Assembly: GCF_000091665.1 (NCBI RefSeq)
Contig: NC_000909.1
Location: 1,342,117 to 1,374,116 of the forward strand
Direction of reading: 5' to 3'
DNA: 32,000 nt
DNA from: Methanocaldococcus jannaschii DSM 2661
GTDB lineage: Archaea; AGJL01; Methanococci; Methanococcales; Methanocaldococcaceae
The notes beneath the pieces were generated by a model. It had not been told where the DNA came from, did no database searches, and was given only the letters and a program-made list of their open reading frames with translations. Position 1 is the stretch's first letter. Every line of letters begins with the position of its first letter. This document shows, piece by piece, positions 17,818 through 23,989 of the stretch. Position numbers and translations under genes: made by a program.

Positions 17818-18021
17818 CTACGTTACATTGCTTAAGGATTTTTCAGCAACATTGGAACTTTGATTTATAACATCCATATTTGCATTTCTTGTTTCGATAG
17901 CTGTCTTTATCAAATAGTATGAAACAATTATTGCTGAGAGAACAACAACCATAACTAACAAAGAAAATTCTAAAGAAATTTGTCCTTTATTGGATTTTAT
18001 AAATTTCATTATAAATTTCAT
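17818..18021 (-). CDS. Small archaeal type IV pilin-like protein with a class III signal peptide (KGQ-type, Epd-like)
   Basis: MKFI-MKFIKSNKG/QISLEFSLLVMVVVLSAIIVSYYLI: a short basic leader, then KG|Q, then a hydrophobic helix with E at +5. This is the pattern of prepilins cut by EppA-type peptidases in methanococci. GGGGAT lies 3 nt before the first ATG; the second ATG is at 18009. Confidence 0.8.
   Translation of the reverse strand: MKFIMKFIKSNKGQISLEFSLLVMVVVLSAIIVSYYLIKTAIETRNANMDVINQSSNVAEKSLSNVT
17998..18021 (-). repeat. Perfect 12-bp tandem duplication covering the pilin start codon (ATGAAATTTATA x2 on the coding strand)
   Basis: The + strand reads tataaatttcat at 17998-18009 and again at 18010-18021, giving MKFI-MKFI. 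Confidence 0.9.
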
Positions 18022-18137: not shown

Positions 18138-20564
18138 ATGCTTATTGTTAGGAAGCCAAAAAAGAAAAAAGATGAGATAGAAATTGTTAAAGTAGGTGGA
18201 AAAATAGAAGATGGGATAGAAGTTAAAAATAATCAGAAGATATTTGCAAATTACAAAAAAGTTGGAGATAAATACAAATTATACAGATGTAGAGTAGGAG
18301 ATAAGTTAATTCAGCCGTCTAAGGTTTTGGAGTTGTTAAAATCTGACAAAATATTTATATTAAAAGAAAATGAGGAAGAAATAGAAGAAGTTTTAAAATC
18401 ATACAATTTAAAGTTTGATTATATAGAACTCTGCCCATTCTGTTTATTAAAAAATATCTACAAAAGATTGACAAGAAATAATAGATGTAGATATGGAAAT
18501 TTAGAAATATGTATAAACTGCGGGATTAATGAAATCAAAGAGGAAGTAAAAATTAGCGAAGAATTTATAGAGAAATTTTTAAAGAGATTTAAAGATGTTG
18601 ATAAAGTTCTATCTTTGTTGAGAATAAGAAATCCATTGGATAAGCCGGAATTAACAAGATATGATATTATAACAGGTAGTGAAGAAGATAAGATTGAAAA
18701 TTATAAGATAGATGAGTTAGATATTCCAGAAGAACTTAAAGAGATAATAAAGAGTAGGGGGATTGAAGAGCTTTTGCCTGTTCAAACACTATCCGTTAAA
18801 GCTGGTTTGTTAAACGGAGATGATTTATTAATTATTTCAGCAACTTCATCTGGAAAAACTTTAATTGGTGAGTTAGCAGGAATTAAAAATTTAATTAAAA
18901 CTGGAAAAAAGTTTCTATTTTTAGTTCCTTTAGTTGCCTTAGCAAATCAAAAATACTTAGAATTTAAAGAAAGATATGAAAAATTAGGTTTTAAAGTTAG
19001 TTTAAGAGTTGGATTAGGTAGGATTGGAAAGAAAGTTGATGTTGAGACATCGTTAGATGCTGATATTATCGTTGGGACTTACGAAGGAATTGATTATTTA
19101 ATTAGAACTAAAAGATTAAAAGATATTGGAACAGTGGTTATTGATGAAATCCACTCTTTGAATTTAGAGGAGAGAGGAGCAAGATTGGATGGTTTAATTG
19201 GTAGGCTGAGGTTTTTATTTAAAGAGGCACAAAAAATATATTTATCAGCAACAATTGGAAATCCAAAGGAATTGGCTAAACAACTAAATGCCAAATTAGT
19301 TTTATATAATGGAAGGCCAGTTCCTTTAGAGAGACATATAATTTTCTGCAAAAATGACTTTGCCAAACTAAATATTATCAAAGAAATTGTTAAAAGAGAA
19401 TGGCAGAACATTTCAAAATTTGGATATAGAGGGCAGTGCTTAATATTTACTTACTCAAGAAAGAGAGCAGAGTATTTAGCTAAAGCTTTAAAATCTAAAG
19501 GAATTAAAGCAGAGTTCTATCATGGAGGTATGGAATATATAAAAAGAAGGAAAGTTGAAGATGATTTCGCAAATCAAAAAATTCAGTGCGTTGTTACAAC
19601 TGCCGCTTTATCTGCAGGGGTTGATTTTCCAGCATCAACTGTTATCTTAGAGAGTTTAGCTATGGGGGCTGATTGGTTAAATCCTGCTGAATTCCAGCAA
19701 ATGTGTGGGAGGGCTGGAAGAAAGGGGATGCATGAAATTGGGAAGGTCTATCTTTTGGTGGAAATAGGGAAGAAATATCATGCAAAGATGGAAAATACTG
19801 AGGATGAAGTGGCATTTAAATTATTAAACGCAGTTCCTGAAGATGTTAAAGTTGAATATAATGAGGATGAGGAGGAAGAGCAGATATTAGCTACAATCTC
19901 AGCTGGAATAACTAACAGATACGATATAGATAGAGTTCCTTATATTGGAAGGGCATTTTCTTTGAACAAAATTTTGAGTAATTTAGAGAGTTATGGAATG
20001 ATAAAAGCTAATAATGATGTGAAATTAACAAATTATGGAAGTGCAGTTGCTATTTCATTTTTATATCCAAAGGTTGCTGAAAAAATTAAAGAGGGGATTA
20101 TTGAGAATAAAGAGATTATAAAACTAATTACTGAAATTATGCCCTTTGAAAACGTCTATTTATCAAACAATTTAAAAATAAAGCTTTCAAAAATTTTGAA
20201 TATAAATGTTCCTTCAAGGTTTTTTGATGCTTTGGAAGTTATTAGGGAGGGGATGGAAAAAATTAAGGATAAGAAGTTAAAGGAGGATTTAACTTTAATT
20301 ATTATGGAATTTGAGGGAGTTGAAGTTGAAGAAAAAATTTTAGAGATGATTATTAATCTAAGGATTTCTGGAAAAACTCCTGGACAGATATCAAAGACAT
20401 TATATGAAGAGTTTAAAATACAAACGTACTCTGGAGATATTTACTATTACTTAGAGCAGTTATTAAATCTTTTAGACGCTACAGAGAGAATAGCGAGGAT
20501 ATTTAACAAGAGATATGCCGAGAAAGTTAAAGAACTAAAAGAGAAAATTGAAAATCCAAAATAG
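18138..20564 (+). CDS. Superfamily 2 (Ski2/DEAD-like) ATP-dependent helicase with an N-terminal Cys4 zinc ribbon
   Basis: Motif I ISATSSGKT, motif II VIDEIH, motif III LSAT, motif VI QMCGRAGRKG. CPFC...C...CINC lies upstream of the core. SD GGTGAT is 5 nt before the ATG. Confidence 0.9.
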   Translation: MLIVRKPKKKKDEIEIVKVGGKIEDGIEVKNNQKIFANYKKVGDKYKLYRCRVGDKLIQPSKVLELLKSDKIFILKENEEEIEEVLKSYNLKFDYIELCPFCLLKNIYKRLTRNNRCRYGNLEICINCGINEIKEEVKISEEFIEKFLKRFKDVDKVLSLLRIRNPLDKPELTRYDIITGSEEDKIENYKIDELDIPEELKEIIKSRGIEELLPVQTLSVKAGLLNGDDLLIISATSSGKTLIGELAGIKNLIKTGKKFLFLVPLVALANQKYLEFKERYEKLGFKVSLRVGLGRIGKKVDVETSLDADIIVGTYEGIDYLIRTKRLKDIGTVVIDEIHSLNLEERGARLDGLIGRLRFLFKEAQKIYLSATIGNPKELAKQLNAKLVLYNGRPVPLERHIIFCKNDFAKLNIIKEIVKREWQNISKFGYRGQCLIFTYSRKRAEYLAKALKSKGIKAEFYHGGMEYIKRRKVEDDFANQKIQCVVTTAALSAGVDFPASTVILESLAMGADWLNPAEFQQMCGRAGRKGMHEIGKVYLLVEIGKKYHAKMENTEDEVAFKLLNAVPEDVKVEYNEDEEEEQILATISAGITNRYDIDRVPYIGRAFSLNKILSNLESYGMIKANNDVKLTNYGSAVAISFLYPKVAEKIKEGIIENKEIIKLITEIMPFENVYLSNNLKIKLSKILNINVPSRFFDALEVIREGMEKIKDKKLKEDLTLIIMEFEGVEVEEKILEMIINLRISGKTPGQISKTLYEEFKIQTYSGDIYYYLEQLLNLLDATERIARIFNKRYAEKVKELKEKIENPK

Positions 20565-20606
20565 ATAATATTTGGATACATGATTTTATAATAACACATA
20601 TAAAAA

Positions 20607-20619
20607 TTTTTTATTTTTT
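20607..20619 (+). terminator. Oligo-T terminator candidate after the helicase gene
   Basis: TTTTTTATTTTTT about 43 nt past the stop. Archaeal RNA polymerase terminates at T-runs. Confidence 0.4.
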
Positions 20620-20639
20620 AATAAAAATGTTTATTTAGC

Positions 20640-20965
20640 TTTTATTTTTGATTTAGAGGTTGTTAAATCAGCGATTTCACCCAATTATAGAACATTATGA
20701 AGCTTTTTACTCAACTAACAACCGTATCGAATTTACCATTACTTGGAAATCTATTTAAAACCTCTTTAATCTTATGATAATAAATTCTAATCGATTCGTG
20801 ACTTATATCTTCGAATTTGGAGGGGGATAAACCACTTTCCTCAATGATAATCCGAGGTAGTATAAAAGCCCTGCTAAGATTTTAACCTCTATCGATTCCT
20901 ATTCCTTTTAAAAAGCTTCCTCTCTACGATTCTCTCCTTTATAACTTCTATCATGAGCCTCATAT
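20640..20965 (-). pseudogene. Decayed ORF remnant, possibly the N-terminal HTH part of a transposase-like gene
   Basis: The minus strand reads [24 protein letters not shown], then in the next frame [31 protein letters not shown], then [15 protein letters not shown] and [15 protein letters not shown]. These pieces chain across frames and stops. No intact ORF is present. Confidence 0.3.
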
Positions 20966-21166
20966 TTTATTATTTTTTATCAATATTTAATAAAAACTTA
21001 ACTTGACAATCTCTTCTATCACCTTTAGAAAAAGTAATATAATTTTAAGGTTGTTTTGAAATTCTAATTATTTTTTAATCCAAAAAGAAATATTTTATTG
21101 CATATATTTTATTACATATTAGCAGTTAAAGGTTATTTTATATTTAAATCTTTAAAACTATTTAGA

Positions 21167-21187
21167 TAAAAAAAAGAAAGAAAAAAG
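21167..21187 (-). terminator. Oligo-T terminator candidate downstream of the 346-aa pilin-domain gene
   Basis: The coding strand reads TTTTTTTCTTTCTTTTTTTT immediately after the stop. Confidence 0.45.
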
Positions 21188-21195
21188 GTGAGAAT

Positions 21196-22236
21196 TTATA
21201 ACCTATCTTTTAATACAATATTGACATCAACTTGTTTATATACTCCTTGGTCGGAAACAACTTTTACAGGGATTTTAACAGTTGTTTCTCCACTTGGCTC
21301 TTCTTGGAAACCCATACTTGAACCAAAGAAGAAGAATATTTCTTTTGAAACTTTTTCTCCTTTATGTAATGTTCCAACATCCCATTCTGAAGTATAGAAC
21401 TTAGCATCGATTGGTGTTTTGTATTTGTAAAATGCTTGAGCAGTGTTCCATCCAATGAATTTTGTAGCTGTTAATGTATTTGTCCAGCTTGAATATGAAC
21501 CATTAACCGCACATGCATACCACATATTGTTGAATCCTCCTGCATACAACCTCATACTTTGGACATCATTTTGTGAATATGGCCATTTCTTAGCAGTTGT
21601 AACTGATAAATCTTTACTACCATCTACTGCTGCAACTCCAGTAACTGAGTTTGGAGCTAATATGTAGTATACACTTGTATAGTTGTTTCCATCATCTCCA
21701 GTCCATGTAGCATCTGGGTATATTCCAGTTCTATTTAATATACCTTTAAATGGAGTCCCATCATTTGTGCATAATAAATATGCATCATAGTTTTGTCCGT
21801 TGTAGTTTAATGTAATCTTTTTGAGTGTTAAACCAGCAACTTCTGTGGCTCCGTCACTTTCTATTTTTACATTTGTTAATGTCGAATCATAGTAGTTTTC
21901 TAAAGTTAATGGAACTGGAACGATTAATCTTTCATCATATGAGCCATAATCTGTTGTAGTCAAGTGAGAGAGTTTGTAATCTGGAGTAGGATATGTTAAA
22001 TCCAAATCTCCTTCAACATCAATTTCTTTTGGAACTCCAACACCTATGGCTCCTGCAGCGTAGGTTATTGTGGATGTTGTTCCTTCTAATGCTGACTGAG
22101 TACTTTGCTGGCTGTTATTAAATAATCCACTTCCCCATGCGTAGAATACTGCTCCTACGACTATTGTAACTCCTAACACGATTAATAAGGCTAAGATTGG
22201 AGAGATTGCTTTTTTGTTCTTCATCCATTCAAACAT
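21196..22236 (-). CDS. Large secreted protein with an archaeal type IV pilin N-terminal domain (class III signal peptide, KKA|ISP type)
   Basis: MFEWMKNKKAISPILALLIVLGVTIVVGAVFYAWGS is the K-K-A-I-S-P-I-[LI]-A motif plus hydrophobic helix typical of the archaeal pilin N-terminal domain. It is followed by a ~310-aa globular region. GAGGTGAT lies 5 nt before the ATG. Confidence 0.85.
   Translation of the reverse strand: MFEWMKNKKAISPILALLIVLGVTIVVGAVFYAWGSGLFNNSQQSTQSALEGTTSTITYAAGAIGVGVPKEIDVEGDLDLTYPTPDYKLSHLTTTDYGSYDERLIVPVPLTLENYYDSTLTNVKIESDGATEVAGLTLKKITLNYNGQNYDAYLLCTNDGTPFKGILNRTGIYPDATWTGDDGNNYTSVYYILAPNSVTGVAAVDGSKDLSVTTAKKWPYSQNDVQSMRLYAGGFNNMWYACAVNGSYSSWTNTLTATKFIGWNTAQAFYKYKTPIDAKFYTSEWDVGTLHKGEKVSKEIFFFFGSSMGFQEEPSGETTVKIPVKVVSDQGVYKQVDVNIVLKDRL
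22129..22215 (-). repeat. 87-bp block identical to 23515-23601 (pilin-type signal peptide and hydrophobic core)
   Basis: ACTTCCCCATGCGTAGAATACTGCTCCTACGACTATTGTAACTCCTAACACGATTAATAAGGCTAAGATTGGAGAGATTGCTTTTTT occurs in both genes at an offset of 1386 nt and encodes KKAISPILALLIVLGVTIVVGAVFYAWGS. Confidence 0.9.
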
Positions 22237-22303
22237 ATTACATCACCTCGTTCTTTCCTCGGGTATCCTATTACAGGAGACCGTCATTGGAATTAAATAT
22301 TAC

Positions 22304-22313
22304 TTTATATATT
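22304..22313 (-). promoter_or_regulatory. TATA box candidate for the 346-aa pilin-domain gene
   Basis: The coding strand reads AATATATAAA, ~17 nt upstream of the conserved leader block ATGACGGTCTCC. An equivalent box is upstream of the paralog. Confidence 0.5.
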
Positions 22314-22524
22314 ATTAAACTTTCTTTAATGTAGGTGGTTATGTATATACGAATTTCGTCTATATAAAATTTTCTATATAATTCATAAAGAAAATTTTAA
22401 ATATGAAAATTTAACTAACAGTATGATTTTTATATGAAAAAATATTTATTTTTCATAAATTTTATTTTTTTCAGAATTTGAAAAGAGATTTTTATATTAA
22501 ATTTGAATTTATGGATGTATATAA

Positions 22525-22548
22525 ATAAAAAAGAAAAAATTAGAAAAT
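22525..22548 (-). terminator. Oligo-T terminator candidate downstream of the 357/374-aa pilin-domain gene
   Basis: The coding strand reads TAGATTTTCTAATTTTTTCTTTTTTATTTAT directly after the stop. Confidence 0.4.
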
Positions 22549-23622
22549 CTACTCATCATCATAGACCGTAAATTTAACTTTAACTTCTTTAGTTACTCCT
22601 TCGTTAGATACAACTTTTAACGGAACTTCAAATGTCACATATCCATCATTTGTAGATCCTTTGTAGTTTGGCAAGTATAATGTATTGAAGAATAAGTAGG
22701 TTTTTACAGTTTTTTCTGAGTTCTTTGGTAATGTTCCTACAACATATTCTGGGTTGTTGAATAGTTTATCTAAGTATGTTGCAGAACTGCAGAACCATTG
22801 TGCAACCAATGTTCCACTTCCAAATCCTGGTTTTAATTCTTCTCCAGTAGCTGTGTATAACTTAACATTACTACAGTATGTTCCATAATATGGCCATGAA
22901 GTCTCTACAAGTGGAGCTACTCCAGTTGTTGTATTAACTGCATCCCAGCTGGAGTCTGATGTTGCACCAACTGAAGAAGCCAATTTTCCATAGGTGTCTC
23001 TTGTCTGATTCCATGCAATTACATACCCATTACTAACTTCAAACATTCCTGATTTATTTACGTATCCAACGAACAATGTTCCATCTTTCTTCAACAATTG
23101 ATAGTTGTCATTTAGGTGTAACCAGAATGCATAGAACTTTGCAGATATATCTTCAAAGGCATTTGTGTAAGTTCCACCCATATCAACTATTTTTGGGATT
23201 CCTCCTACAACTTTAACTCCAGTTAATTTATAATCTTGTGTGTCAATAGTTACTGGAATTTCCACAATAAATCTTTCGTCATAGAATACTGTGCCGTATG
23301 TTGAATTATAACATCCATTTGAAGTAGATGGCTTTGCAATTTTTCCGTTACCATTTGGATAGCCTAACCATGAATCACTATCATCAGCATCTTGGTATCT
23401 TATTTTGTCAATACATGTTGCTGCAACCCTAATTGCCCCAGCATCATAAAACATATTTGTTGCAGTCCCTTCAACTGCTGCCTGTGTCTTTTCTTGGCTG
23501 TTTCCGAATAAATTACTTCCCCATGCGTAGAATACTGCTCCTACGACTATTGTAACTCCTAACACGATTAATAAGGCTAAGATTGGAGAGATTGCTTTTT
23601 TATTCTTTAACCAGTCCATCAT
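22549..23622 (-). CDS. Large secreted protein with an archaeal type IV pilin N-terminal domain (paralog of 21196..22236)
   Basis: MMDWLKNKKAISPILALLIVLGVTIVVGAVFYAWGS. GAGGTGGGAAG precedes ATG 23622. The ORF track's longer start at 23673 adds MTVSHGGILEGSSRGGK, which I interpret as leader sequence (see findings). The C-terminal end ...EVPLKVVSNEGVTKEVKVKF resembles ...KIPVKVVSDQGVYKQVDVNI of the paralog. Confidence 0.8.
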   Translation of the reverse strand: MMDWLKNKKAISPILALLIVLGVTIVVGAVFYAWGSNLFGNSQEKTQAAVEGTATNMFYDAGAIRVAATCIDKIRYQDADDSDSWLGYPNGNGKIAKPSTSNGCYNSTYGTVFYDERFIVEIPVTIDTQDYKLTGVKVVGGIPKIVDMGGTYTNAFEDISAKFYAFWLHLNDNYQLLKKDGTLFVGYVNKSGMFEVSNGYVIAWNQTRDTYGKLASSVGATSDSSWDAVNTTTGVAPLVETSWPYYGTYCSNVKLYTATGEELKPGFGSGTLVAQWFCSSATYLDKLFNNPEYVVGTLPKNSEKTVKTYLFFNTLYLPNYKGSTNDGYVTFEVPLKVVSNEGVTKEVKVKFTVYDDE

Positions 23623-23686
23623 CTTCCCACCTCTACTACTTCCCTCAAGTATCCCACCATGGGAGACCGTCATCGGGAGTAATAAT

Positions 23687-23696
23687 TTTATATATT
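23687..23696 (-). promoter_or_regulatory. TATA box candidate for the 357/374-aa pilin-domain gene
   Basis: The coding strand reads ATATATAAAA, ~14 nt upstream of the conserved ATGACGGTCTCC block. Confidence 0.5.
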
Positions 23697-23989
23697 TTTT
23701 ATTAATTTGTGTAGGTTATTATGTATATTATATTACTTATGCAGTATATCATGCCAAAATAATATATAAATCTTACGATTTTTTAAAAAATATTATTACT
23801 CAAATATTAATTTTTAAACAAATAATGATAAAAGATATTTTAAAATATTTTAAAGTTTTCTTTAATATTGTTAGGAAAATAGAGCCAAATTAAACATTCA
23901 CATTTCTTAATACGTAACTGCTGTTAAACTTTAAATATTAAATGTGATATAATATCAATCATCAAAATTTCTGTTAAAAGGTGAGATTA

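Follow-up and report, generated by a model that had tools for sequence, protein, structure and literature searches.

The locus considered here raises the question of what two neighbouring genes of Methanocaldococcus jannaschii DSM 2661, called A and B below, encode, and why a part of their 5' ends is identical to the letter. The window (the whole stretch of 32,000 nucleotides that was analysed, C1:1342117-1374116) comes from a genome whose three pieces (1,664,970, 58,407 and 16,550 bp) add up to 1,739,927 bp. Gene A (21196..22236, minus strand) is an open reading frame (ORF) for a 346-residue prepilin and gene B (22549..23622, minus strand) encodes a paralogous prepilin of 357 residues; by their position and from the neighbouring genes they are probably MJ1402 and MJ1403, respectively. 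Our reading, to which we give a probability of roughly 0.7, is that both are type IV pilin subunits of a third, lineage-restricted pilus system, separate from the archaellum and from the EppA/Epd pilus. It draws on a match to a pilin N-terminal domain model, on the adjacency of the pair to a pilus locus in related genomes, on co-occurrence with the genes of that locus, on a 240-residue paralog inside it and on the operon context of remote homologs in Methanosarcinales.

The open frame of gene B continues upstream to 23673, and the start of the gene is the ATG at 23622, 4 nt after the Shine-Dalgarno sequence AGAGGTGG (23634-23626). The in-frame extension to 23673 is a conserved leader, and in gene A and the orthologs the corresponding ATG further upstream either stands in another frame or runs into a stop; the frame upstream of 23622 is leader that happens to be read in frame and has no coding role. 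The A and B proteins align end to end in BLASTP (34% identity, 375 columns, E = 8e-45) and share internal motifs (YDER[LF]IV.[VI]P[LV]T lies inside both), so that they are homologous over their full length, and not, as a preliminary description of this DNA had it, only distantly alike in their globular domains save for a C-terminal strand. Orthologs of gene A with 61-86% identity are present in five other Methanocaldococcus genomes. The ratio of non-synonymous to synonymous substitution rates (dN/dS) is 0.17-0.28 for gene A and 0.10 for gene B against its ortholog in strain FS406-22, with an overall range of 0.10-0.34, and both genes are therefore maintained by purifying selection. An oligo-T stretch (21165..21195, minus strand), a likely archaeal terminator, stands immediately after the gene A stop codon and has a counterpart, also a likely terminator, after gene B (22519-22548); the two form a direct repeat (D12, 76% identity), and with such a stretch behind it each gene looks like a separate transcription unit.

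As had been proposed earlier, a class III (prepilin-type) signal stands at the start of both proteins and a pilin helix comes next. In gene A the leader peptide is the 10 residues MFEWMKNKKA, with a predicted cleavage site at KKA/ISP (the slash marks the point of cleavage) and the hydrophobic alpha-1 helix behind it; the N-terminus MFEWMKNKK-A/ISPILALLIVLGVTIVVGAVFYAW has A at -1 and K at -2 ahead of the hydrophobic stretch, in keeping with the archaeal prepilin rule of G, A or S at -1 and a charged residue at -2, ahead of some 20 or more hydrophobic residues (PMC4371748). A scan of the whole genome with TIGR02537, the NCBIfam model of the archaellin/type IV pilin N-terminal domain, gave matches at both A and B (27.8 and 27.2 bits, cut-off 20), and the UpsA pilin model aligned to residues 8-49. 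The alpha-1 helix is invariant in all subtypes of the family and more distant homologs carry typical TEA/ISPI prepilin signals. A profile of the globular domain found only 15 cluster representatives among 1.84 billion proteins, and a search for related loci among genome contigs returned one metagenome-assembled genome (MAG). Neither protein matches PF04021 and both have Ile instead of Gln at +1, which sets them apart from EppA-type pilins; nor do they qualify as archaellins, since only the N-terminal domain model matches them and their genes lie outside the arl/fla operon (the three archaellin genes are found together with FlaI and FlaK at C1:821-824 kb). In some Methanocaldococcus MAGs the family has a third subtype (C-type, about 335 residues; P0013, P0015; L015/L018, L052) with the same invariant helix and the same leader element as A and B, so that some genomes have three large paralogs.

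At C1:1229746-1238445 lies the pilus locus. Its A24 peptidase has both catalytic Asp motifs, and the locus further holds small pilin-like genes, a T2SSF platform protein, a T2SSE ATPase and a 240-residue pilin. This pilin opens the operon and resembles A and B at its N-terminus; within the family it is a shorter paralog (hhalign probability 98.2%, E = 3e-14). M. jannaschii has three A24 peptidases, namely a FlaK equivalog, an EppA equivalog and the divergent third one in the pilus locus, which supports the earlier expectation that the different signal types in this genome would be served by different prepilin peptidases. Among the 17 Methanocaldococcus genomes compared, homologs of A and B occur in six (M. 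jannaschii, M. fervens, M. lauensis, FS406-22, M. vulcanius and one incomplete MAG); five of these have one A-type and one B-type gene and the incomplete MAG gives three matches. Orthologs of the platform protein, the 240-residue pilin and the peptidase are present in these six of the 17 genomes and in no others. The A/B pair directly adjoins the peptidase end of the locus in FS406-22, M. lauensis and M. fervens, and two metagenome contigs with A-type genes show the same adjacency. Remote homologs of 390-395 residues in Methanosarcinales MAGs follow two pilin-like genes, a T2SSE ATPase and two T2SSF genes; they are separated from that operon by a 300-bp intergenic region, have their own promoter region and are the only large pilin there. 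The best NCBIfam match of the locus ATPase is FlaI, below cut-off. In those rows of Table S3 of Makarova et al. (2016; PMC4858521) that concern these species, M. fervens and FS406-22 have one clade-2 (euryarchaeal) ATPase each, and M. infernus and M. jannaschii (in which the ATPase gene is split) have none; clade 2 and the archaellum clade are sister groups (PMC4858521). From these table counts and the closest NCBIfam match, and not from a tree, we infer that the locus ATPase belongs to clade 2.

In M. jannaschii itself the pair lies far from this locus, and the reason is probably an inversion. The 630-bp gap beside gene A holds a copy (20656..21013, plus strand) of a repeat some 360 bp long. 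This repeat, a decayed insertion sequence (IS) or an element like a miniature inverted-repeat transposable element (MITE), is present in at least 10 copies with 91-97% identity. An inverted, 97%-identical copy is found at C1:1228344-1228701, and 9 bp from it, where the pilus locus has its peptidase end, is a transglutaminase-like gene. When the 134 kb that separate the two copies are flipped, the genes come to stand as CBS gene, B, A, repeat, transglutaminase-like gene, peptidase and on to the 240-residue pilin, which is the order in M. fervens with all gene orientations correct. As inverted repeat copies stand at both junctions and undoing the inversion restores the M. fervens order, the 134-kb segment was probably inverted between them, the copy beside gene A being the probable breakpoint, and the pair was thereby moved away from the pilus locus. 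The transglutaminase-like gene (C1:1228711-1229769) encodes a secreted protein with DUF553/Transglut_core and S-layer-like domains; it stands at the end of the locus in M. jannaschii, and in FS406-22 and one metagenome contig it has the peptidase on one side and the pilin pair on the other. Transglutaminase-family peptidases have been linked to methanococcal pilus loci before, in a role that is unknown (Makarova et al., 2016; PMC4858521).

The structure of the globular part was predicted. For gene A this part is about 290 residues long, and AlphaFold2 (AF2) gave a confident all-beta, two-lobed model from 47 sequences (predicted local distance difference test score, pLDDT, 86.7; predicted template modelling score, pTM, 0.87). 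Four N-glycosylation sequons are present in each of the two proteins. Foldseek searches of the PDB with the full-length and the globular-only models gave no significant fold match, and a profile search of PDB sequences gave no meaningful one. The weak Foldseek matches of the globular part are to beta-sandwich adhesins and fimbrial subunits (for example Bbp, ClfA, RbmA, FaeG and EcpA), all with E > 1e-3 and TM-score <= 0.25. It was also observed that the last beta-hairpin motif (profile positions 274-301, ...P.KV.S.EGV.K.V.V...) matches repeats in two giant proteins of the representative library, with 25 stretches in P0019 (2979 residues) and 6 in P0028 (1038 residues); the strand-pair module of the pilin C-terminus may have been used as a repeat unit in large surface proteins.

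Several observations weigh against the assignment of A and B to a working third pilus. The earlier expectation of a recognizable pilin N-terminal domain was borne out by TIGR02537 and not by the Pfam model Pilin_N (PF07790), which stays below its gathering score (14.2 and 16.8 bits against 25.2), the sub-threshold alignment beginning at residue 9, the expected position. The AF2 model is of low confidence for the N-terminal 54 residues. The only filament matched in the PDB is that of Iho670 (5kyh), weakly (E = 5.7e-4, TM-score 0.15-0.19), and the E value becomes 0.014 once the helix is removed. The six genomes in which the genes co-occur may represent one clade, and hence are not six independent observations. 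The ATPase gene of the M. jannaschii locus (C1:1234313-1235907, minus strand) is split into ORFs of 252 and 270 residues in different frames, the orthologs being intact at 520-539 residues in FS406-22, M. lauensis and M. fervens, and a pilin-like gene of 385 residues in the relatives is split into 220 and 179 residues in M. jannaschii. These splits reflect either decay in the type strain or errors in an old genome sequence, and the pilus machine may be inactive in this M. jannaschii strain. A literature search on MJ1400, MJ1402, MJ1403 and MJ1282-1289 found no relevant paper. As to the place of the two proteins in a filament, the large (250-550 residues) Ig-like pilins of euryarchaeal systems have been hypothesized to be minor pilins (PMC4858521), and A and B are candidate members of that group. 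Finally, the estimate of expression comes from a crude proxy, the codon adaptation index (CAI) relative to five genes (EF1A, EF2, two McrA and thermosome), by which gene A stands at the 90th percentile and gene B at the 65th.

The last two points bear on the alternative that survives best, namely that A and B are minor pilins or tip adhesins with adhesive beta-sandwich domains, and that the shaft is built from another subunit such as the 240-residue paralog. The weak likeness of the globular domain to adhesins and fimbrial subunits would fit, as would the published hypothesis for large Ig-like pilins, the position of the 240-residue paralog at the head of the operon, and the strong divergence of the globular domains both between the paralogs and between B-type orthologs, which is what one would expect of binding modules. 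We nevertheless consider it rather unlikely. None of the structural matches is significant, and the codon adaptation of gene A is level with that of the best-adapted archaellin gene (the archaellins stand at the 87th, 62nd and 2.5th percentiles), whereas the in-operon 240-residue pilin is only at the 13th and the platform gene at the 3rd. A and B each have their own promoter-like box, strong Shine-Dalgarno sequence and oligo-T tail outside the operon, and such a position outside the operon, singly or in tandem, is typical of the genes for major archaeal pilins (PMC4858521). Moreover, in the Methanosarcinales loci no other large pilin follows the machinery genes; together with the codon adaptation of gene A, this also answers the earlier objection that proteins of such a size are too large for structural pilins. 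On these grounds gene A probably encodes a structural, major subunit, and gene B would be an alternative or co-assembling one.

The class III signal could in principle serve only in the processing and anchoring of surface proteins outside filaments. Archaea do use prepilin-type signals on proteins that form no filament, the sugar-binding proteins of the Sulfolobus bindosome being an example, and in M. jannaschii A and B are under purifying selection even though the ATPase gene of the locus is split. That A and B are binding proteins or enzymes of this kind is improbable, however, because Pfam and NCBIfam reveal no solute-binding or catalytic domain in either protein, no match to an enzyme-like fold is significant, the genes are strictly linked to and co-occur with the ATPase, platform and minor-pilin set, and the alpha-1 helix is invariant across the subtypes, as would be expected of a polymerization interface. 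The suggestion made in the preliminary description that they might be pilin-anchored surface enzymes finds no support either, as there is no catalytic domain and the weak matches of the all-beta model are to adhesins and fimbrial subunits.

With A and B read as pilins, the identity of their 5' ends can be considered. The segments 22129..22215 of gene A (minus strand, codons 8-36) and 23515..23601 of gene B (minus strand) agree letter for letter over 87 bp, both encode KKAISPILALLIVLGVTIVVGAVFYAWGS, and the identity is confined to the signal and hydrophobic core, exactly as first described. If the protein alone were constrained and codons were drawn from the codon usage of the window, the chance of 29 identical codons would be about 10^-10.9. 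Within a genome the two copies of this segment differ at no position in M. jannaschii, FS406-22 and M. lauensis, at 5 in M. vulcanius (where the genes are unlinked) and at 17 in M. fervens, and between genomes there are 6-21 differences, nearly all synonymous. The longest runs of identity between A and B are 87 bp in M. jannaschii, 220 bp in FS406-22 (from -54 to +166 relative to the ATG), 170 bp in M. lauensis and 41 bp in another genome. Past codon 55, A and B of one genome are 39-50% identical and A orthologs are 59-79% identical, so that the duplication predates speciation, and as the number of synonymous substitutions per synonymous site (dS) between orthologs is 0.6-1.3, selection at the nucleotide level cannot explain the identity of A with B. 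Recurrent gene conversion thus keeps the 5' ends of the two genes identical within genomes. The converted tract takes in the signal peptide with the alpha-1 helix and, in some species, extends over the whole leader, while the globular domains diverge freely; as a result of this homogenization both paralogs keep one processing site, one assembly interface and one leader. That the 87-bp identity is instead due to selection on the nucleotide sequence (for mRNA structure or a targeting signal, for example) or to an assembly artefact is hardly credible: mRNA features could indeed affect co-translational targeting in a stretch that encodes a signal peptide and helix, yet species differ in this stretch, mostly at synonymous sites, and in three genomes its two copies are identical, the length and boundaries of the tract change from genome to genome, the M. 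fervens copies differ at 17 sites, and the pattern recurs in independently assembled complete genomes. Pilin paralogs that keep a conserved N-terminal part, vary in their exposed parts and recombine with one another are familiar from pilE and pilS of Neisseria, where conversion diversifies the variable region of one expressed gene from silent copies; here, by contrast, it is the constant 5' region that is homogenized, in two genes that are both expressed, and the variable part is left alone.

The leader that is shared by the two genes contains a candidate L7Ae-binding kink-turn (k-turn), as judged from its sequence. In both genes and in the orthologs a stem-loop of the general form CCC-GAU-GA-C-(GGUCUCCC-loop-GGGAUACU)-C-GA-GGG stands upstream of the Shine-Dalgarno sequence. 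In gene A (22253..22292, minus strand) it reads UCC-AAU-GA-C-(GGUCUCCU GUAAU AGGAUACC)-C-GA-GGA and in gene B (23639..23678, minus strand) CCC-GAU-GA-C-(GGUCUCCC AUGGU GGGAUACU)-U-GA-GGG, with scores of 58.9 and 56.5 bits, respectively, for the covariance model R1. At the level of sequence this matches the k-turn layout, in which a Watson-Crick canonical (C) helix is followed by a bulge of 3 nt, by tandem trans sheared G:A and A:G pairs and by a non-canonical (NC) helix. In an alignment of eight leaders 98.8% of cells are paired and five pairs show compensatory changes, values that none of 500 shuffles reached; with 14 leaders the figures are 99% of cells paired in two helices and 5 compensated pairs, with 0-1 of 500 shuffles as good. 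The k-turn sequence pattern is found in all 14, with a GAU bulge (AAU in gene A) and invariant GA/GA. Model R1 has no match in the genome beyond these two sites and within the family picks out A/B-type leaders alone, and it recovered leaders from three contigs that had been left out of model building; one of these has a perfect GGUCUCC/GGAGACC stem and another (L052) a wholly different but fully compensated AGUGUC/GACGCU stem. An Rfam scan of 20500-24000 at E <= 1 gave no family match. Thermodynamic folding of the leaders gave z-scores near 0, so that stability alone lends no support, and it is the covariation that argues for an RNA structure.

Gene A has a TATA-like box, TTTAATAA (22312..22319, minus strand), which follows an A-rich stretch resembling a transcription factor B recognition element (BRE) and is kept in the ortholog alignment; it presumably belongs to the gene's own promoter. 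The Shine-Dalgarno sequence GAGGTGAT (22242..22249, minus strand) lies 5 nt upstream of the ATG, with an equivalent GAGGTGA in all orthologs. The first paired base of the leader helix comes 21 nt after the end of the TATA-like box, and with this spacing the position of the transcription start decides whether the k-turn lies within the mRNA. The k-turns in the 5' untranslated regions (UTRs) of archaeal l7ae genes bind L7Ae and have a 3-nt bulge, tandem G:A and A:G pairs and low intrinsic stability (Huang et al., 2019; PMC6298567). The A and B leaders resemble these stem-loops (Daume et al., 2017, PMC5539422; PMC6298567) in the CCC-GAU-GA-C-hairpin-C-GA-GGG layout and in their near-zero z-scores; they differ in that the element stands on pilin genes and the Shine-Dalgarno sequence is about 9-12 nt downstream of the helix and not inside it, with L7Ae as a candidate binding protein. 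We suggest tentatively, as a possibility short of an even chance, that the element is a functional k-turn bound by L7Ae or a protein of its family, which would set the translation or stability of the pilin mRNAs and be homogenized by gene conversion along with the signal peptide and helix, so that one post-transcriptional switch would go on governing the paralogs as their exposed domains diversify; in a methanogen this would amount to an L7Ae regulon that includes cell-surface filaments. A mini-ORF shared by both leaders (MTVS; 22285-22243 and 23673-23623) was considered as a coding feature and rejected, as its frame and length differ among genes and species. It starts from an AUG inside the leader GAUGA and meets an early stop in gene A, is fused in frame with gene B, and in FS406-22 ends in a UGA that overlaps the pilin AUG; it accounts for the over-long annotated N-termini of some orthologs (P0007, P0009).

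Among known systems the closest parallel is with the adhesion pilins PilA1-PilA6 of Haloferax volcanii, subunits of clade-2 euryarchaeal type IV pili, which are likewise paralogous pilins with a near-identical N-terminal hydrophobic domain and differing exposed domains. These major pilins have an almost identical H-domain (PMC4371748), and their genes lie outside the ATPase/platform genes and are not co-regulated with them, each paralog being able to act as the major pilin (PMC4371748; PMC4858521). The clade-2 ATPase counts for M. fervens and FS406-22, as given in their rows of Table S3 (PMC4858521), also fit the locus described here. By comparison with PilA, A and B have about 350 residues with a two-lobed beta domain that has no sequence relation to PilA, and the system has its own dedicated A24 peptidase, a structured leader RNA and proof at the DNA level of recurrent gene conversion. 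Iho670 of Ignicoccus hospitalis (5kyh) is similar in being a large archaeal type IV pilin-like protein with an N-terminal helix and a beta-sandwich, and it forms the main filament of the cell in that species; it is the best Foldseek match of the full-length model, though the structural match to it is weak, as noted above, and there is no sequence similarity. The Epd pilins of Methanococcus maripaludis (processed by EppA; Class_IIIsignal/DUF361, Q at +1) are methanococcal type IV pilins with a peptidase distinct from FlaK, from which A and B differ not only at +1 and in lacking PF04021 but also in being about five times larger and in having another set of ATPase, platform protein and peptidase.

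The window also contains a 67-residue protein with a KG/Q class III signal (17818..18021, minus strand), an EppA-type small pilin (PF04021, 43.5 bits against a cut-off of 23.7). The view that two prepilin signal classes are encoded together in this region stands in so far as the KG/Q protein is genuine, and is unsupported in that its proximity to A and B is specific to M. jannaschii and it belongs to another pilus system, of the EppA/Epd type. The Hel308 gene beside it adjoins gene A only in M. jannaschii and is 86-490 kb from the pair in the relatives, which makes the KG/Q pilin an accidental neighbour. The surface-protein genes MJ1393-1398 nearby were examined as possible members of the system and rejected, as they have Sec-type signals and come with no pilus machinery.

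A mechanism can be proposed on this basis. Prepilins A and B would be inserted in the membrane and the 10-residue leader removed after Ala10 (KKA/ISP), most likely by the A24 peptidase of the locus and not by FlaK or EppA. The invariant alpha-1 helices would then pack as the filament core, driven by the ATPase and platform protein of the locus, and the all-beta domain of about 290 residues with its N-glycosylation sequons would form the exposed surface, with gene A supplying the probable major subunit and gene B, and in some genomes the third type, offering an alternative surface.

M. jannaschii and its relatives are model hyperthermophilic methanogens in which surface filaments other than archaella are essentially undescribed. 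A and B represent an uncharacterized family of large pilins whose pilus system is lineage-restricted, whose concerted evolution is limited to one region and whose leader is a candidate k-turn, and two long-standing hypothetical proteins can on the reading preferred here be assigned to a complete third type IV pilus system with a likely dedicated prepilin peptidase. One organism with three peptidases and three classes of substrate would allow a direct test of specificity. The pair is in addition a natural example of concerted evolution limited to one region, in which the processing and assembly module is homogenized repeatedly and the exposed module diverges. If it is true that L7Ae binds the leader, translational control by L7Ae would extend beyond its own mRNA to genes for surface structures in a methanogen.

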